Of a stretch of DNA of 34,803 bases, positions 3,113 through 33,320 are shown one piece after another. The notes beneath the pieces were generated by a model. That model saw only the letters and a program-made list of their open reading frames with translations, did no database searches and was not told where the DNA came from. The stretch comes from a phage. The translations under genes were made by a program, and so were the position numbers. The stretch lies in the NCBI GenBank assembly GCA_021149145.1, contig GCA_021149145.1_4322.1; one strand, 5' to 3'. Numbering within the stretch: position 1 is the first letter of the stretch; the number at the start of each line of letters is the position of its first letter.

Positions 3113-3211
3113 TCTTGTTTATTCCTTTTCGGTTAGGTATGTACGAGTCAATTATACACGAGTTTATGGCTGTTACAATAACATCATACATGAGGCTTAA
3201 ATCTGCCTGGC

Positions 3212-3233
3212 AAAATACACAAAAAAAACCTCC
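3212..3233 (-). terminator. Rho-independent terminator between decoration-like and capsid genes
   Basis: CCTCC-CGAA-GGAGG hairpin preceded on plus strand by A8. Confidence 0.7.
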
Positions 3234-3263
3234 CGAAGGAGGCTTGTTTAATTAATGATAATC

Positions 3264-3758
3264 TTACTTCTGCTTAACCTGAACTTCTACCAGAGGACCA
3301 TCAACGCCACCATCTTGAGCTGACATTGCGCCAACTGCGGTTGCTTTGGGAATGAATCCGCCAGCGAATGTCCAGCCAGTTGCCACGCCGCCAGCTGCGG
3401 CTGCAACAACTACGCCAGTTGAATTCACAAAAACGGCGTCACCGAAGCTTGGCGCTGCTTCAAGGTTAGTGCGCATCCAGATTCGGCCAGCGGTCATTAC
3501 GTTAACAGCCTCTTTCACTTTAGCGGTGCCACCTGGAGTCTCGTAATGAGAACGAACAACTACGCCACAAGCCGAGTTTGCAGTAATACCAGTTGCAACA
3601 ACGGTTTTGTGACCATCAGATAACAATTCTGGCGTAGATACTCTAACAGCTACACCAACAGGAATTTCAGTGGCACCGCCAACTACACACGCGCCATCGA
3701 TATTATACAGGGAGGTATCAGATACCATACCAGCCAGAGCTACAGAACGAATTGCCAT
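3264..3758 (-). CDS. Putative head decoration / auxiliary capsid protein
   Basis: 164 aa, Gly/Ala/Val/Thr-rich; between scaffold and capsid genes; own terminator downstream. Confidence 0.35.
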   Translation of the reverse strand: MAIRSVALAGMVSDTSLYNIDGACVVGGATEIPVGVAVRVSTPELLSDGHKTVVATGITANSACGVVVRSHYETPGGTAKVKEAVNVMTAGRIWMRTNLEAAPSFGDAVFVNSTGVVVAAAAGGVATGWTFAGGFIPKATAVGAMSAQDGGVDGPLVEVQVKQK

Positions 3759-9056: not shown

Positions 9057-9581
9057 TTACAGTTTGCTAATCACAGACTCCAGGGCTTCCTTCATCGTTT
9101 CGACGTCGTTAGCAGAAGAGTTATTGCTTATAGTGATCTCCTGCGGTTTGTCGATTCCAAGCTCCTTGGAAATCATGCCAGGGTTAACAATGCCAGATGC
9201 TGCAAGCTGGTATTTCTGCTCGCGAATCACGGAATCAATGAATGCAATCACCTCATCATAACCAGCCGACTTCCTCCATTTCTCGATGGCGCCATGGGTG
9301 ACACCGCAGTAAAGGCAGAATCCGGTTAGCGTGAAGACTCTTGGTTTGTGCACCAGGCTCTCTTTTACCACACCCTGGAAGCTGGCTGTCTCGATTGCAT
9401 TGATTGCCTGGTCCTCAGCCCATGAGAAGTATTTCACGGCGAATTCAAATAGCTGTTCGGGTGTCATGCTTCTGTTTTTGGCTAGCGTTGTAATGTCTGA
9501 GTACTTTTTATTGTACATGGCTTTAAAGTTGCCAGAGCGGACCTTTTCTTGCGCCTGACTGGTGAAGTTTTCGTCTTTCAT
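9057..9581 (-). CDS. Terminase small subunit
   Basis: 174 aa immediately upstream of large terminase; AAAGGAGG RBS; TGATATAAT extended -10 upstream. Confidence 0.65.
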   Translation of the reverse strand: MKDENFTSQAQEKVRSGNFKAMYNKKYSDITTLAKNRSMTPEQLFEFAVKYFSWAEDQAINAIETASFQGVVKESLVHKPRVFTLTGFCLYCGVTHGAIEKWRKSAGYDEVIAFIDSVIREQKYQLAASGIVNPGMISKELGIDKPQEITISNNSSANDVETMKEALESVISKL

Positions 9582-10117: not shown

Positions 10118-10193
10118 TGGTGTTCCGCACTGGACTCGAACCAGTAACTAAGACTTAGGAGGTCTTTGCGTTATCCTGTTACGCCAGCAGAAC
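10118..10193 (-). tRNA. tRNA-Arg (anticodon CCU)
   Basis: 76-nt cloverleaf folded by hand: acceptor GTTCTGC/GCGGAAC (one G-U), D-arm GCGT-AACAGGATA-ACGC, anticodon arm AAGAC-CUCCUAA-GTCTT, T-arm ACTGG-TTCGAGT-CCAGT, discriminator A, encoded CCA. Confidence 0.8.
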
Positions 10194-10381
10194 AAATCCT
10201 TGAGTAGCGATTGCGCTATTGAGGGATTGCTGGTTACGCTTCCAGCGTCGAGTTCCTCGACCGATTTCGCCATATACGCTGCTTAGTGAGTTATGGACTT
10301 TGTGTTGCACTCCGTGCGCCGTTGCCACTTGGTGGCCTCGTCTGTCTACAGTTGTTAATGTACCAGTCAGGGTTAGATGTG

Positions 10382-10579
10382 TCAACTTACTCTTTCGAAT
10401 TTCCCATAATTCTGGTCATACGGGTAGTCAATGCTCACCAATTCGCCATTATCGCTGTAGCAGAATGCGTGGCCAGTCTTCGATACCTTTTCGACCTGGT
10501 AATCGCATCCATCCATGAAGTCATCCGATGCCGCCTTTGTGCACTTGATAGCATCGCCTTTCTTAATAATCTTACTCAT
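10382..10579 (-). CDS. Hypothetical protein (65 aa)
   Basis: ORF; start overlaps stop of upstream gene. Confidence 0.45.
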   Translation of the reverse strand: MSKIIKKGDAIKCTKAASDDFMDGCDYQVEKVSKTGHAFCYSDNGELVSIDYPYDQNYGKFERVS

Positions 10580-10785
10580 TAAAACTCCTCAGTGATAAGC
10601 ATCTTGCCACAATATTTGCACTCGTAGAACGCACATGTTTCACCTATTGATACACTTGGTTTTGTTGACTCGTGGTATGCAGAGCTTATCGCCTTAATGT
10701 CAAAATCGTGAATGATTGATGTGAACACGTAAATGTAATGATGTTTGTGATTATTGTCGTTATCACTCATAAAGGCTATTCCCAT
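10579..10785 (-). CDS. Hypothetical protein (68 aa) with C-terminal CxxC
   Basis: ORF MGIAFMSD...; YECKYCGKM motif; 5' end lies inside a 29-bp direct repeat. Confidence 0.45.
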   Translation of the reverse strand: MGIAFMSDNDNNHKHHYIYVFTSIIHDFDIKAISSAYHESTKPSVSIGETCAFYECKYCGKMLITEEF

Positions 10786-10789
10786 TCTC
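10761..10789. repeat. 29-bp perfect direct repeat, copy 1 (TATCACTCATAAAGGCTATTCCCATTCTC)
   Basis: Identical to 10886-10914; on the minus strand it carries the ATG and first 8 codons (MGIAFMSD). Confidence 0.85.
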
Positions 10790-10793
10790 TAAC

Positions 10794-10910
10794 CTAATTC
10801 AATGTAAATATGAAGAAAATCATCCCAATTGCCGTAGCTATAGCCAATCCGATGGCGATCAGAGTTAGTACTAAATCAATGATAATATCACTCATAAAGG
10901 CTATTCCCAT
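10794..10910 (-). CDS. Possible small membrane protein (38 aa)
   Basis: Hand-translated: MGIAFMSDIIIDLVLTLIAIGLAIATAIGMIFFIFTLN; shares its first 8 codons with the downstream gene via the 29-bp repeat. Confidence 0.3.
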   Translation of the reverse strand: MGIAFMSDIIIDLVLTLIAIGLAIATAIGMIFFIFTLN

Positions 10911-10914
10911 TCTC
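10886..10914. repeat. 29-bp perfect direct repeat, copy 2
   Basis: Identical to 10761-10789; here it also encodes the C-terminus ...ENGNSLYE of the 78-aa ORF in another frame. Confidence 0.85.
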
Positions 10915-11124
10915 ATCATGACCCACACGCCCTCGACGATAGCCCGCTATCCACACAAACTTATCACGTGCGATTATCGTGGATACCGGCCCCCATATCT
11001 GAGTGATAAGCGCCGCAACAACCTTATCATCTTTCTTTTTTGCGCCCAATTTGCCGTATTCGTCATTCAGCTTGTCAGCCTGTCGCTTAACTGCGTTAAA
11101 GTATGCGTCGTCTAACCCGAACAT
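10888..11124 (-). CDS. Hypothetical protein (78 aa)
   Basis: ORF; motif-type promoter upstream (11154-11198). Confidence 0.45.
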   Translation of the reverse strand: MFGLDDAYFNAVKRQADKLNDEYGKLGAKKKDDKVVAALITQIWGPVSTIIARDKFVWIAGYRRGRVGHDENGNSLYE

Positions 11125-11153
11125 TTTCTAACCTCTCGCTGTTTGATATATAA

Positions 11154-11198
11154 ATTATATGGCATACATGCCTTTGGTGTTTAGCTATTCGTGCTGTT
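11154..11198 (-). promoter_or_regulatory. Motif-type promoter (19-bp upstream element + TATAAT)
   Basis: Minus strand ACAGCACGAATAGCTAAAC, 22 nt spacer, TATAAT, ~30 nt before the ATG at 11124. Confidence 0.45.
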
Positions 11199-11321
11199 TA
11201 TTTTATCTTCACGCTCCTTCCATAGATTCATCAGCTCGAAGTACATCATGGCAACCTCGCCAGTCTTAGCCTCATCCATCATCCGTTTAGCCCACTGGCT
11301 TGGTGTTTCGTAGTTATCCAT
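11181..11321 (-). CDS. Hypothetical small protein (46 aa)
   Basis: Hand-translated MDNYETPSQWAKRMMDEAK...KINSTNS; start overlaps upstream stop (TAATG); C-terminus encoded by the promoter element. Confidence 0.35.
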   Translation of the reverse strand: MDNYETPSQWAKRMMDEAKTGEVAMMYFELMNLWKEREDKINSTNS

Positions 11322-11482
11322 TAGTAAACAAGAGCCTCGTGGTTTGCTATGTAAATCTCCTCATCGTGCTTGTTTTTAATGAAGTACCCATTGCCATCTT
11401 CGCTAGGCTCTGCATAGAATACGTCGCCATGCTTTAAGCGCGCCATATAATCATCCTCACCAATATATACGATCTTAATCAT
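11321..11482 (-). CDS. Hypothetical small protein (53 aa)
   Basis: Hand-translated MIKIVYIGEDDYMARLKHGDVFY...; GAGGTGA RBS 6 nt upstream. Confidence 0.4.
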   Translation of the reverse strand: MIKIVYIGEDDYMARLKHGDVFYAEPSEDGNGYFIKNKHDEEIYIANHEALVY

Positions 11483-11645: not shown

Positions 11646-12068
11646 TCAGATTTTGTTAATTTGCTCAAACTTCTCAAACCAGAAAACAACTGGAGCCTCC
11701 ACTATGGAGATGAGGCCGAACCGCTCTGCCGTGCGAAAATTCATGCTGCTCTTACGCCCGCGAGCTACTTGAAGAGACACCTGTTCCCTGAACATTTCAA
11801 GGGAATAGCAATTTTTCATGAGGTTGCATGGAGCACATGCAGGGTAAAGGTTTTCCATTCGATCAGCTTGTGGTCGATTAAACTCACCTGTCGCCTTCAG
11901 CTTGAAAGTTCCTTTCTCCGCTGCCTTCATGCATACCTCAGATTTACGTAGCACCGGTTCAACATGGTCAGCATGCCAGCCTTTCTCAGGTAGTTCACAC
12001 CCACAATAAGCGCAGCGACCACCGAACTTGCCCTTCAACTCTTCCCTTTGAGATTTGCTTAATTTCAT
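11646..12068 (-). CDS. HNH endonuclease
   Basis: 140 aa with CAYCGC...HADHV...N...CAPCN, the classic C-x2-C / H-x-D-H / N / C-x2-C HNH arrangement. Confidence 0.8.
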   Translation of the reverse strand: MKLSKSQREELKGKFGGRCAYCGCELPEKGWHADHVEPVLRKSEVCMKAAEKGTFKLKATGEFNRPQADRMENLYPACAPCNLMKNCYSLEMFREQVSLQVARGRKSSMNFRTAERFGLISIVEAPVVFWFEKFEQINKI

Positions 12069-13300: not shown

Positions 13301-13440
13301 TGTAATTACCCTGTGTAAGATTTTACGCGGATTCGCCGGGGGTATGCATATGTATCTATATAGATAAAATTAGTAGTTTTCATAGAAAAACTATCGACCC
13401 ATCCATACGACCAATCTACACCATATACATACATATATAC

Positions 13441-13526
13441 AATAATAATAATAATATAGTAAAAGGTTGATATATATAGATATTATTATGTAACCATTGC
13501 GTAATCTAGCGTGGTAGGCGTATATG
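13441..13526. repeat. AT-rich control element, copy A (paralog of 33236-33320)
   Basis: (AAT)5 + identical 29-mer AGTAAAAGGTTGATATATATAGATATTAT (13458-13486) + GCGTA-type repeats at ~10-bp spacing (13499, 13509, 13518). Confidence 0.75.
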
Positions 13527-22823: not shown

Positions 22824-24533
22824 TCAATCCTCCATCGTAAATGATTTGTTGGCGATAATATCTTGAGACTTCTGGTTTTTACGGTGTGTGATTCTCAATG
22901 GGGCACGGAATAGATGTGCATTTGTCATAATCATTCTAGCATTACGCAATCTGCCAATTCTGAATGCCTCATTCCTGTTATCGATGTGTGTTGAGCAGAA
23001 AGCCTTCCATTTAACAGAGCAAACGCGATGGTCTGATTCAGGGAAGAATGTTTCATAAGCTCGGAATCTGTCACCACTGTGAGCCATAACCTCATATGAA
23101 GCAATAATCCCTGACTGGTTCTTTGTTAACCCAATCTTGAAGTCATAAACTCGCAACCAGTCCCCCTTACGATACATTTTTCCTGATAACTTAGCATTCG
23201 GGTCTATGAGCATCTCACCACAGCATCTGCAATTCTTAGCTGCAATATCATTCTTCTCACCGCATCCTTTCTTGATGATAGCTTTGGTCTGTGGGTCCGC
23301 CATATCTTCACACAGTATAAACTGAAAGAAGTGCTCGCAACGCTTACCGTCAATTACATTATTACAACGCCGTGCGAACGGAGAGTTCTCATAAGAACAT
23401 GCCGGGCATACCCTAGGTTCATCACCTCCTTTCCTTGATGACTTAAACTTCTGGTCCTGAACTTCTTCTATAATTGGGTCAAAGTAAAGCTCTGCCATAT
23501 CGTCAAGCGTTCCGGCGAAATCGAGAACAACATGGTCTTCTTTTACCATCCCTGAATCCTTGTGTTTTTTCTTAAGAATTCGCATACCACGACCAAGCAA
23601 CTGAATGAGTAGAGTAATGCTACCAACCTTCCTCAGGATAATGCTTGTATCCCACGGGGGGCAGTTTACGCCAGTTGTGAGGCAACCAATCTGAAATATG
23701 AACTTATATTCTCCGTTGGCTGCCTTCTCAAGTATCTCTCTACGCTTCTTCTCACCAGTGGAGTTGGTAACTATCGCCCAAGTAACACCTTCTGGAAGTG
23801 CGGCTGCCGCCTCCTCGCAATGCCGTTTGCCAGCGCAAGTTACCAATGCAGCATTCCTTGTTTCCATAAACTTAGCAGCAAATCTCATTATCTTTTGTGT
23901 CATCGTTTGGTTTTCGTGAATCTTTGCAGCCATCGCATCCATTTCTTTCTTGCTGAAGTCCTTAACCCCATCACTTCCATCAGGAGTGAACTCACTAAGG
24001 TCGTAGCCCAAATCACCAACTTCACCGTAGACAGTAGGAACAACGAACCCCAAGTCAACAAGGTAGCTGGTTGGCACTTGCATTACAGTTTTGCGCCAGA
24101 ATCCACGGACATTTGGGTTACTAACTACAATGTGGTCGTTGTTACGGTACGGGCTACCAGTTAACCCAAAGATACGAAGTTCGCGACCGTACTTCTCCCT
24201 GCATCGACGCTTCATTTCGGTAATGATTAACGTGTATTGCGCGCGACCAGTGCCAAGAAGCCCGGTATTCACACCATCCTTAAAGACCATCTCACCATTC
24301 TTCGTGCTCATCTGCTCGAATGTTTCCTCATTCTCTTCAGCTTCTACGATATCCATATGGTCCACCATGTGGCAATTATGTGCCACGACCCCGTCAGCAA
24401 TGAAATTATGGTGCTCAGGCATCTCTATATCCCAAACAAGTTCCTTGCCAATTGGTGAGATGTCTTTAATTTTGCTTGATTTTGTATTCCACGCCATTTT
24501 CCATGTGCTTACTAATTCTCTTAAAAAACTCAT
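22824..24533 (-). CDS. Helicase, C-terminal part: 53-aa intein C-terminal segment (blocks F/G) fused to C-extein
   Basis: Starts with ATG right after an in-frame stop; ...ELVWDIEMPEHHNFIADGVVAHN|CHMVDHMD...; C-extein carries helicase motif VI-like QLLGRGMR and a C-terminal Cys cluster. Confidence 0.7.
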   Translation of the reverse strand: MSFLRELVSTWKMAWNTKSSKIKDISPIGKELVWDIEMPEHHNFIADGVVAHNCHMVDHMDIVEAEENEETFEQMSTKNGEMVFKDGVNTGLLGTGRAQYTLIITEMKRRCREKYGRELRIFGLTGSPYRNNDHIVVSNPNVRGFWRKTVMQVPTSYLVDLGFVVPTVYGEVGDLGYDLSEFTPDGSDGVKDFSKKEMDAMAAKIHENQTMTQKIMRFAAKFMETRNAALVTCAGKRHCEEAAAALPEGVTWAIVTNSTGEKKRREILEKAANGEYKFIFQIGCLTTGVNCPPWDTSIILRKVGSITLLIQLLGRGMRILKKKHKDSGMVKEDHVVLDFAGTLDDMAELYFDPIIEEVQDQKFKSSRKGGDEPRVCPACSYENSPFARRCNNVIDGKRCEHFFQFILCEDMADPQTKAIIKKGCGEKNDIAAKNCRCCGEMLIDPNAKLSGKMYRKGDWLRVYDFKIGLTKNQSGIIASYEVMAHSGDRFRAYETFFPESDHRVCSVKWKAFCSTHIDNRNEAFRIGRLRNARMIMTNAHLFRAPLRITHRKNQKSQDIIANKSFTMED

Positions 24534-25514
24534 CTTGTGCCGACCTCGTTGTTATTGATACTGAGTAAAGCTCTCTCTTTTTCTTGCCGCCAATATAGCT
24601 TCTAACCTTAACTCCGTCATTAGCAATAAATGCTATTAGCGCATCAACTACTGATTGAACTTCACTCCTGCTAAATGATTCGGTGTGGATTTCTACAACC
24701 CTCTTCCCTGAGCTTACAGTGCAATGACCATCATCACCAAAGTAAGCAGCCCAACCAACTGGATCAAGCTCTCTGCATATCTTTCCAATATCGTAACCAT
24801 CCTTAGAATTTCCGTACTTATCAGCATATGAATCCAGAACTTTCGTACATGATGTTGATACGCAAAACCAGTTGTCGCCAAATCCAGGGTTTTTCTTCTC
24901 CCTGTATCTAGGGTTTAGTTTTGCAAACCTTTCAACCTTGCTTAGTGCGTGCTCCTTATTTCCAATATTCCAAGATAGCCTATGCGTTCCTTTTTCTGTA
25001 TTTTTAATCAAGCAACCATCACCAGCCATTGCCGCAAGAATGTTTTGATGTAAAAAGTCATCAACCTCCATTGATGGGTTGACGGTTGAATTATGATGCC
25101 CCGTTCTGTAATCCAAATAGAAATCGAAAGGGTTCTTAAGAAGTACGCCTAACCCCTTGCTTGAATGCGGCATAACTTTTTCACCACAGCCACACTTGCA
25201 CGCAGGAGCTTTTTCGTAAATTTGTCCTGCGAGCCGTCTAGCGACAGATTCATCCCAATACGAAGTTTTCCCGCTCCTACCCAGCAGCCGTTCGAATAAA
25301 GTTTGTGTGTACTCGTGCATTTTATTTCCTCTCCGCTTTCTAATTTAATTGATGATACATGTCTTACACCATTAGTAAAAACTCTTTTTGGCTTATGATA
25401 GAAGTAATCACCAGTGCTTTCGTTTATGCATTTTATTTTATGATTGATAAGGTCTTCGCTATCAATCCTCATCATCCCTGAATCGGTGGTTATCATCGTG
25501 TCTCCAGTTAAGCA
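24375..25514 (-). mobile_element. Intein (1140 nt, 380 codons) in helicase motif II, with LAGLIDADG endonuclease encoded in a shifted frame
   Basis: Block A CLTGDTMITT directly after ...VIAIDE; block B KCTSTHKLY; blocks F/G VWDIEMPEHHNFIADGVVAHN then C; joined exteins read DE-CH. The two splicing domains share one frame; the endonuclease ORF is in another. Confidence 0.75.
24466..25320 (-). CDS. LAGLIDADG homing endonuclease (intein-internal or free-standing)
   Basis: 284-codon ORF with its own ATG, two LAGLIDADG-like motifs (ILAAMAGDGCL, AAYFGDDGHC); overlaps the flanking ORFs by 172 and 68 nt. Confidence 0.65.
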   Translation of the reverse strand: MHEYTQTLFERLLGRSGKTSYWDESVARRLAGQIYEKAPACKCGCGEKVMPHSSKGLGVLLKNPFDFYLDYRTGHHNSTVNPSMEVDDFLHQNILAAMAGDGCLIKNTEKGTHRLSWNIGNKEHALSKVERFAKLNPRYREKKNPGFGDNWFCVSTSCTKVLDSYADKYGNSKDGYDIGKICRELDPVGWAAYFGDDGHCTVSSGKRVVEIHTESFSRSEVQSVVDALIAFIANDGVKVRSYIGGKKKRELYSVSITTRSAQDEFFKRISKHMENGVEYKIKQN

Positions 25515-25958
25515 CTCATCTATCGCGATAACAGCAGGAGCATAGTCACCAAGCCCCTTAAACAAGCCGTTAGCAGCCGTTCCCTCACTAGCCACTATGG
25601 TTGGATAGTAAACTGATTTAACGTTAAGGCCAGCGCAATAGACGCTATTACGGATGCCGAAATTACGAAGTTCCTCTGCGTTCTGGCTGACAATCTCTGA
25701 CTGGCGAGATAGGACCATGTAAGGAAGGCCAAGCTGTTCCATTCGTTTCCCAATCATGGCGAGAATAATCGTCTTGCCAGCCGAAACCGATAGGTCTGCT
25801 ATGAATGGCGCTTCGTACTTGCCAATAGCCTTTCCGATTGCGTCAAATGTCACGCACTGGAATGGGTATGGTGTGATTTCTCCGAACTGATAATCATTTT
25901 GAATCTGCTTGATTTTATCTTGGTCAAAGTTTGCTACTAAGCGTTCTACTGGAAGCAT
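25149..25958 (-). CDS. Helicase, N-terminal part: N-extein (148 aa, Walker A SVSAGKT, Walker B IAIDE) fused to 121-aa intein N-terminal segment
   Basis: ORF ends at TAG after intein blocks A and B; same frame as the C-terminal helicase ORF. Confidence 0.7.
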   Translation of the reverse strand: MLPVERLVANFDQDKIKQIQNDYQFGEITPYPFQCVTFDAIGKAIGKYEAPFIADLSVSAGKTIILAMIGKRMEQLGLPYMVLSRQSEIVSQNAEELRNFGIRNSVYCAGLNVKSVYYPTIVASEGTAANGLFKGLGDYAPAVIAIDECLTGDTMITTDSGMMRIDSEDLINHKIKCINESTGDYFYHKPKRVFTNGVRHVSSIKLESGEEIKCTSTHKLYSNGCWVGAGKLRIGMNLSLDGSQDKFTKKLLRASVAVVKKLCRIQARG

Positions 25959-28000: not shown

Positions 28001-28064
28001 TTGCCTGAAAGATGGTAGAATGAATTTTGGCAATTAGTGCTACTTTACAAATGGAGACTTTACA

Positions 28065-30548: not shown

Positions 30549-30977
<429 letters not shown>

Positions 30978-33081: not shown

Positions 33082-33235
33082 CAATGTAAATAGTGAGTAT
33101 ACCGTGTATACCGATTTTAGCGGAGGGTGCATAGGTATAGGTGCTGCGCAATACTGTATAAAATCACATGGTATAAAAATTATAAGCGGAACACTCAAGA
33201 ACAGTAGTTACATGATATACAAGATATACATATAT

Positions 33236-33320
33236 AATAATAATAATAAGAGTAAAAGGTTGATATATATAGATATTATAATGTAACTATGGCGTAAACT
33301 GGCGTAACTGGGCGTATACG
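33236..33320. repeat. AT-rich control element, copy B, with three GGCGTA repeats at exact 10-bp spacing
   Basis: (AAT)4-5 + identical 29-mer (33251-33279) + GGCGTAAACT / GGCGTAACTG / GGCGTATACG at 33291, 33301, 33311. Confidence 0.75.

Follow-up and report, generated by a model that had tools for sequence, protein, structure and literature searches.

A duplicated gene end with a probable overlapping translation-initiation region in a Drexlerviridae coliphage as the likely scar of an illegitimate crossover

We describe a 29-bp perfect direct repeat, here called R, in a 34,803-nucleotide stretch of phage DNA (GenBank assembly GCA_021149145.1, contig GCA_021149145.1_4322.1), which is referred to in full as the window. 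The window derives from a Drexlerviridae/Braunvirinae (Rtp-like) coliphage, and the genes around R lie on its minus strand. In minus-strand order, a promoter-like site is followed by a 78-amino-acid gene, a gene for a hydrophobic micropeptide of 33 amino acids (TM33), an open reading frame (ORF) for a small cysteine-pair protein (CxxC), and a 65-amino-acid gene (phrog_4927) (Table 1). Over positions 10300-11400 the nearest GenBank records are phages ES and AN_ECEAS, which align in two pieces with 92.7% identity and 89% coverage. The proteins of the locus had no Pfam matches, and their PHROG matches were only to families of unknown function. A PDB profile search gave nothing meaningful (E=0.17), a single-sequence structure model reached a pLDDT of 55, and an RNA family search returned no match besides the tRNA-Arg.

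Table 1. Positions of R, the surrounding genes, and other features of the window
Feature	Position	Strand	Description
Terminase small subunit	9057-9581		
tRNA-Arg(CCT)	10118-10193		Further along in the same direction as the local genes
CxxC gene	10579..10770	-	63 amino acids from ATG2; small cysteine-pair protein, function unknown
CxxC gene, if ATG1 is used	10579-10785	-	68 amino acids
R copy 1	10761..10789	-	Last 27 nt of a 78-amino-acid gene, no longer coding for the 78-amino-acid protein
Copy 1, SD-like GGGA	10780-10783	-	
Copy 1, ATG1	10783-10785	-	
Copy 1, ATG2	10768-10770	-	
Linker GTTA	10790..10793	-	4 nt between the TM33 stop codon and copy 1
TM33 stop codon (TAG)	10794-10796	-	
TM33	10794..10895	-	33-amino-acid hydrophobic micropeptide MSDIIIDLVLTLIAIGLAIATAIGMIFFIFTLN read from ATG2; lies between the R copies
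R copy 2	10886..10914	-	Codons E72-E79 and TGA stop of the 78-amino-acid gene
Copy 2, SD-like GGGA	10905-10908	-	
Copy 2, ATG1	10908-10910	-	
Copy 2, ATG2	10893-10895	-	
78-amino-acid gene	10888..11124	-	phrog_303, function unknown; anchor gene whose last 8 codons and stop are R
Promoter candidate	11154..11183	-	sigma-70-like, TAAACA-18-TATAAT, upstream of the 78-amino-acid gene; consensus match only, putative function
HNH gene	11646-12068	-	140 amino acids, phrog_2118, E=1.8e-54
LAGLIDADG-like ORF	24466-25320	-	284 amino acids; weak LAGLIDADG homing-endonuclease PHROG match, E=3.5e-8
19-nt motif, 13 copies	7357, 11181, 13764, 14577, 15357, 18809, 21150, 22390, 24620, 28027, 31726, 33373, 34121	both	Dispersed family
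AT-rich block, about 84 nt	13429-13512 and 33224-33305		Families D5, D10
TGCTGT/TGCTGC run	30565-30656		Family D1, in the SSB ORF
SSB ORF	30549-30977	-	

The exact 29-mer, TATCACTCATAAAGGCTATTCCCATTCTC on the plus strand, is present in two copies whose starts are 125 bp apart. A first-pass annotation of the window had reported this repeat, and its sequence facts were all correct. It had also placed the copies at the heads of a 38-amino-acid hydrophobic ORF and a 68-amino-acid CxxC ORF on the minus strand; both ORFs are present, the hydrophobic one having 38 amino acids when read from ATG1 of copy 2 and 44 in the ORF list, which starts from an upstream GTG. The search of the rest of the genome that the annotation had proposed found no third copy on either strand of the window, even with up to 3 mismatches. 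R was absent from 100 dinucleotide-preserving shuffles of the window, and the chance expectation of an exact 29-mer pair in 34.8 kb is, by our own arithmetic, approximately 2e-9. The same two-copy layout is found in four independent assemblies of related phages (L019, L020, L043, and L044), ruling out chance and the assembly artefact that had been raised as a possible refutation. On the minus strand R reads GAGAATGGGAATAGCCTTTATGAGTGATA and contains two in-frame start codons, ATG1 (GAGA-ATG-GGA) and ATG2 (TTT-ATG-AGT), which together give the peptide MGIAFMSD.

Copy 2 is the original, conserved end of the 78-amino-acid gene together with the start of its downstream neighbor, because the same block closes this gene, and the next ORF starts within it, in every relative fetched. 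The gene belongs to the early genes of T1/Rtp-like phages. The 78-amino-acid protein matches phrog_303 (E=6e-24) and has homologues in 603 GenBank phage records, with a C-terminus, GRVGHDENGNS-YE, that is invariant among 12 aligned homologues. The gene ends in ...GHDENGNSLYE* in every relative fetched, with the codons GAG AAT GGG AAT AGC CTT TAT GAG followed by TGA or TAA, and the R block forms the end of this gene in all 36 relatives examined. The motif occurs once per record in 84 of the 84 GenBank records that carry it. The first-pass annotation was right that copy 2 encodes the C-terminus of the 78-amino-acid ORF (ENGNSLYE*) but missed that the repeat originates there.

In every relative examined, the next ORF starts at the ATG embedded in TAT-GAG-TGA and overlaps the stop codon by 8 nucleotides (nt) (ATGAGTGA). 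Different phages use this ATG for seven mutually dissimilar ORF families: TM33, the CxxC family (with a 61-amino-acid relative in IME253), a 21-22-amino-acid MSELTIWFIAG peptide, peptides of 29, 30, and 35 amino acids, and an ORF of 78-87 amino acids. The overlap constrains the N-termini of the docked proteins to M-(S/N)-(D/E/K/N), and thus part of the shared "MSD" is explained. ORFs for micropeptides of 21-35 amino acids with a single hydrophobic helix (for example, MSELTIWFIAGLIAWGYFLIA) overlap the phrog_303 gene end by 8 nt and are conserved across Drexlerviridae subfamilies; they are found just after position 840 of L040 (Shigella phage Sf12), at 1230-1480 of L001 (phage ES), and in Rtp, RobRod40, and others. 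Several GenBank records leave them unannotated, namely the micropeptide of Sf12 and both TM33 and the 29-amino-acid ORF of ES.

The codons that form R are under synonymous constraint. Among 26 unique, phylogenetically related homologue sequences, synonymous codon diversity was 0.086 over the last 8 codons, lower than in any other 8-codon window of the gene, compared to 0.39 outside this block. Codons for invariant residues were frozen at four of six positions in the last 8 codons and at two of 29 positions in the remainder of the gene (Fisher p=0.004). Both N73 and N75 use AAT in every sequence, in contrast to the predominance of AAC at N10 and N20, and G74 is always GGG. R also contains UGGGA 9 nt before ATG2, with an anti-Shine-Dalgarno pairing energy of -4.2 kcal/mol. 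The corresponding position in distant homologues has clearer Shine-Dalgarno (SD) sequences: Sf12 carries GGAGAG and phiJLA23 carries GGGGAG, both 7 nt ahead of the ATG. In Sf12, ACT GGA replaces AAT GGG, so that ATG1 is absent and ATG2 and a homologous downstream micropeptide are kept. No terminator-like match was found in R and no promoter-like match in or next to either copy, the nearest being the candidate upstream of the 78-amino-acid gene. The predicted minimum free energy of R is -1.3 kcal/mol (z=0.43), and the 91-nt contexts of the copies have z=0.94 and z=0.28, indicating that the repeat is unstructured; no inverted repeats flanking R were found. Because of the frozen codons, the SD-like element with its clearer counterparts in Sf12 and phiJLA23, the lack of ATG1 in Sf12, and the absence of another signal in R, we infer that R is an overlapping translation-initiation region embedded in a gene end, in which UGGGA would serve as the SD element.

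Judged by its sequence, copy 1 duplicates the 3' end of the 78-amino-acid gene at an ectopic site before the CxxC gene. Its start coincides exactly with E72, the first synonymously frozen codon. By searching with the CxxC protein and then fetching contigs, we recovered four natural arrangements of these genes. In type A (L021), the 78-amino-acid gene overlaps CxxC directly (MSDNYNN..., P0004). In type B (L022 and L023), it overlaps TM33 (MSDVIIDL...), which is followed by a 30-nt spacer with its own GGAG and then by CxxC (MNENDNN...). In type D (phage ES), it overlaps a 29-amino-acid ORF, followed by TM33 (MNDIIIDL..., with its own SD, GGTGG) and CxxC (MNENDNN, with its own SD, AGGAG). Type C, with the order 78aa-R-TM33-TAG-GTTA-R-CxxC, comprises the window, L019, L020, L043, and L044. 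The alignment with related phages that the first-pass annotation had called for thus finds the TM33 gene between the copies and other gene orders in relatives with a single copy.

The four type-C relatives are metagenome assemblies from four different sequencing projects, and each has the identical joint and two perfect R copies. L019 (44.7 kb) is 94% identical to the window over 3.4 kb, and L020 is 98.7% identical. The GTTA linker is the same in all five type-C sequences. A second R copy was found in none of the 84 GenBank records and in none of the 33 other fetched loci. The GenBank phage collection searched contains no type-C arrangement, so that this case is undescribed there, and a pattern search for more type A or C junctions gave 0 matches. 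TM33 itself is rare; among GenBank phages, BLAST found it only in ES and AN_ECEAS, where it is unannotated. One difference within type C is a 1-nt deletion in TM33 at about 270-300 of L020 (TTCTTCAATTTAC vs TTCTTCATATTTAC), which shortens the peptide to 31 amino acids; this contig (ENA ERZ1505396) has 1.6x coverage, and at such low coverage a sequencing error is more probable than a real variant.

The 5' end of the type-C CxxC gene suggests descent from a type-A parent, as its first approximately 33 nt share type-A character states (AATAATCACAAACATC vs AATAACCACAAGCATC in ES), after which CxxC of L019 turns ES-like, reflecting a later homologous exchange. The segment from the TM33 stop codon to ATG2, which includes the 5' part of copy 1, does not significantly resemble the TM33-CxxC spacer native to ES or L022, so that copy 1 is best seen as a replacement of that spacer. 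We considered whether the native CxxC spacer could have been converted into R gradually or homeologously and rejected this, as global alignments of the copy-1 spacer were no better than those of shuffled sequences (77% and 97% of shuffles scored as well or better for ES and L022, respectively). An 18-nt similarity between the 5' and 3' ends of TM33 (family D2) was attributed to chance; the 3' end of TM33 aligns codon for codon with its ES and L022 homologues. We also rejected the start motif ATGARTRA as microhomology for precise gene deletions, since it is not enriched in the window (7 found vs 7.4 expected) and is common only to three consecutive starts at 10572-10895.

We consider it likely that the duplicated R is the scar of one illegitimate crossover that kept the CxxC gene's own translation-initiation region, and that the locus is a case of ordinary phage mosaicism. 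The crossover would have been a single non-homologous event between two co-infecting relatives or replicating genomes. One parent, resembling type B, would have carried a 78-amino-acid gene overlapping TM33 and been broken 4 nt past the TM33 stop codon. The other, resembling type A, would have carried a 78-amino-acid gene overlapping CxxC and been broken 27 nt before the end of the 78-amino-acid gene. Joining the two would yield 78aa-R-TM33-GTTA-R-CxxC in one step, with R duplicated. CxxC would have kept its native ribosome-binding region, so that a fragment of another gene's coding sequence now precedes it. The duplicated piece may match the frozen block because recombinants that retained the CxxC initiation region were the viable or fit ones. 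With the TM33 stop codon 23 nt upstream of ATG2, copy 1 would initiate CxxC translation on its own. Recombination between co-infecting relatives is plausible, given that an exonuclease VIII-like protein, an Erf-like annealing protein, and SSB are encoded in the window. As in known mosaic joints, types A, B, and D carry the flanks in simpler contexts, and the joint falls at a gene boundary, 4 nt after the TM33 stop. Duplication or recombination had been among the origins suggested by the first-pass annotation, and an ectopic 3' end of the 78-amino-acid gene acquired by recombination bears this out. Its description of the event as recent does not hold, as the layout is common to five sequences that differ by 1.3-6%.

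The start codons within R affect how the locus is read. The first-pass annotation treated MGIAFMSD as a shared N-terminus, which is probably over-extended; the true starts of both proteins are probably at the second ATG (MSD...), which would be the ancestral start. TM33 homologues in ES and in L022 and L023 have 33 amino acids and start at the position equivalent to ATG2, and the CxxC homologues P0003 and P0007, each with its own SD, begin with MNENDNN. Alternatively, both genes could start at ATG1 and share a functional N-terminal peptide, with R conserved as protein-coding sequence in both. The two ATGs are in frame with each other, gene callers picked ATG1 for P0001, P0002, P0006, and P0008, and the invariant AAT at N73 preserves ATG1. 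In copy 1, the distance from the TM33 stop codon to ATG1 is 8 nt, a spacing within the range where reinitiation works, and AGGU is found 6 nt upstream of ATG1. However, homologues of both proteins that have independent SDs (ES and L022) lack MGIAF and begin at the ATG2 position (MNDIIIDL.. and MNENDNN..), and Sf12, without ATG1, retains ATG2 and a homologous micropeptide. In addition, ATG1 has no SD at a usable distance in its native context, and an AGC/AGT polymorphism at S76 changes A to V in the MGIAF frame. We therefore regard use of ATG1 in both genes as unlikely.

Several observations weigh against the crossover origin or against R as an embedded initiation region. The SD-like element of R is weak, with a pairing energy of -4.2 kcal/mol compared to -8.7 kcal/mol for GAGGAG of the next gene, and the relatedness of the homologues in the constraint test counts in the same direction. 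Use of ATG1, with MGI(A/V)F as a conserved N-terminal extension, would account for the frozen codons as well, and the spacing and AGGU at copy 1 mean that ATG1 could be the start of CxxC there. A left parent with exactly the TM33 variant of the window was not found; a TM33 protein search gave one match, and the DNA pattern had 0 matches in viral_contigs and genome_contigs. Finally, the events could have run in the opposite direction, as type A could equally derive from type C by deletion between the R copies (C to A) rather than type C from types A and B.

That last possibility bears on the view that R is a dedicated recombination linker or cassette site, comparable to a promoter-early stem-loop (PeSL) element or an integron attC site, through which RecE/Erf excises and inserts TM33 as a 125-bp unit and which is kept for gene mobility. 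A single gene lies between the direct copies, type A is a natural occurrence of the predicted excision product, 78aa-R-CxxC, the window carries the three recombination proteins named above, and the end of the 78-amino-acid gene is a hot spot with seven dissimilar docked genes. PeSL-mediated shuffling provides a precedent (PMC2839356). Yet the second copy is confined to type C among all the records and loci searched, TM33 occurs in ES, L022, and L023 without flanking repeats, and R lacks a promoter, terminator, or structure. Type C has also been stably inherited across its five sequences, and coding together with translation initiation already accounts for the conservation of R, making a dedicated mobility site quite unlikely. 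A broader version of this idea is that the last 27 nt of the 78-amino-acid gene are a general docking adaptor of Drexlerviridae, a fixed, synonymously frozen ribosome-binding and start module that captures interchangeable micro-genes and expresses them in single-nucleotide register, is portable with a gene, and in direct copies marks and mobilizes mini-gene cassettes via RecE/Erf. Such an adaptor would be a translation-level analogue of PeSLs or integron cassettes, but we think it improbable.

The first-pass annotation had further suggested a shared regulatory site or a homing-endonuclease-related target. Both copies do give the same translation-initiation region, and to this extent the signal is shared. 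A stricter form of the proposal holds that R binds a trans-acting regulator, either a translational repressor or a small RNA, and was duplicated under selection to co-regulate TM33 and CxxC. The R copies are identical in all five type-C sequences, compared to 5 variable sites in the 96 nt between them, and the R block is under synonymous constraint. By our own arithmetic, however, 0 changes in 58 nt against 5 in 96 nt is not significant (P ~0.09). No candidate regulator, no structure, and no Rfam match except the tRNA were found, and CxxC of types B and D relies for its expression on an SD region unrelated to R, so R-mediated regulation is not required; a dedicated regulator is thus very unlikely. 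Least probable, and in our judgment extremely so, is that a mobile element left the repeat behind, either as a target-site duplication or as a scar of homing-endonuclease recognition or repair. Direct repeats do surround a short insert, and the window contains an HNH gene and a LAGLIDADG-like ORF, but the 96-nt insert encodes only TM33, with no enzyme or transposase and no terminal inverted repeats, and TM33 is found elsewhere without flanking repeats. A length of 29 bp is far above the usual lengths of target duplications. Nothing ties the repeat to the HNH gene, located about 730 bp upstream; single-copy phage ES has a CDS of the same size (423 nt) at the corresponding position, and HNH presence does not track the repeat.

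Gene content also varies elsewhere around the 78-amino-acid gene. Type-C L019 has a 140-amino-acid gene at the position of the HNH gene and L021 and L022 (types A and B) have none at that position, so gene content upstream of the 78-amino-acid gene is variable as well. Downstream, the ORF of 78-87 amino acids (MNKIKSLMFK...) is docked on the 78-amino-acid gene in L010, L011, and L013 (TR1, CY1, and Rao1; 1730-1993), and a homologue (MSKIKSLMLK...) lies one gene further downstream in L021, after CxxC (3192-3428). The TR1-like phages and L021 offer a second case in which an entire gene was gained or lost and the joint falls exactly at start codons.

The window contains other repeated elements and a possible homing-endonuclease gene. 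A 19-nt motif, TTAGCAATT(A/C)GTGCTATTT, occurs in 13 copies on both strands, compared to 0.04 expected, and contains the inverted repeat TAGCA-N5-TGCTA. Most copies, when taken in the reverse orientation, have AAATAGCACTAATTGCTAA, followed after about 20 nt by a TATnAT-like -10 element and then TACyCCATCGAAACGAAA; the copy at 28027 does not fit this pattern. The motif looks like a phage-specific promoter or operator family, and its copy at 11181-11199 adjoins the promoter candidate upstream of the 78-amino-acid gene. An AT-rich block of about 84 nt (ATACATATATACAATAATAATAATAA ... AGTAAAAGGTTGATATATATAGATATTAT...) occurs twice, 19.8 kb apart, with approximately 90% identity, and the TGCTGT/TGCTGC run encodes a repetitive Gln-rich stretch near the C-terminus of SSB. 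The LAGLIDADG-like ORF shares sequence with the 5' part of a helicase ORF (22824-24533) and with another ORF (25149-25958), both of which it overlaps, and may therefore be a homing endonuclease or an intein-like insertion in the replication module.

This locus is a compact, fully traceable case of lytic phages shuffling very small genes, in which parental-type gene orders and the recombinant are still circulating. The joint suggests that selection retained a gene's own ribosome-binding region even though it is a fragment of another gene. There are also consequences for annotation: the downstream genes of this slot probably start at the embedded second ATG, and the end of the phrog_303 gene should be read as a conserved overlapping initiation site.

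In the Hendrix/Hatfull model, phage mosaic joints arise by illegitimate recombination at gene boundaries. The type-C joint resembles these in that a non-homologous join just outside coding sequences would have created a new gene order, genes and expression signals remain intact, and alternative gene contents exist at the slot. Unlike in usual mosaic joints, the joint here would lie inside the 3' end of the second parent's gene, so that a duplicated 27-nt coding fragment would now be only a ribosome-binding region, and parental-type arrangements are still observable. Morons, or ORFan slots, offer a second comparison, with a fixed position downstream of a conserved gene that holds seven dissimilar small ORFs across relatives. 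Morons typically carry their own promoter and terminator, whereas genes entering this slot take over the ribosome-binding site and start codon already in place, to the exact nucleotide.

Overlapping stop and start codons are known to couple translation of adjacent genes by termination-reinitiation (Huber et al. 2019, PMC6728339; PMC10666635; review PMC12548453). An overlap of -8 belongs to the three coupling geometries seen most often, the upstream gene's final 15 nt suffice to couple translation, and coupling is mostly lost with gaps of about 20 nt or more (PMC10666635). Copy 2 resembles such pairs in that it has the -8 overlap (ATGAGTGA), its SD-like element (UGGGA) lies in upstream coding sequence, and the final codons are synonymously constrained (0.086 vs 0.39), and translation of TM33 would thus be coupled to termination of the 78-amino-acid gene. 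Copy 1 differs, as the distance from the TM33 stop is +23 nt to ATG2 and +8 nt to ATG1. Because the overlap is lost, coupling is probably weak there, and the same sequence would have to serve as an independent initiation site.

PeSL cassettes of T4-type phages combine a promoter with a terminator hairpin and occur in many dispersed copies (Arbiol et al. 2010, PMC2839356; Comeau et al. 2014, PMC4122927). R is similar in being a short repeated expression signal between small non-essential genes in a variable region, where recombination between copies would delete or insert single ORFs. Type A (L021) matches the deletion product predicted from such recombination but may instead have preceded type C. 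Unlike a PeSL, R appears to be a translation signal within coding sequence, with a single extra copy (two in 34.8 kb), no sigma-70-like promoter, and no stem-loop terminator. The resemblance to PeSLs is by analogy only. The locus represents no new kind of system but a well-known kind of event, mosaicism by illegitimate recombination.

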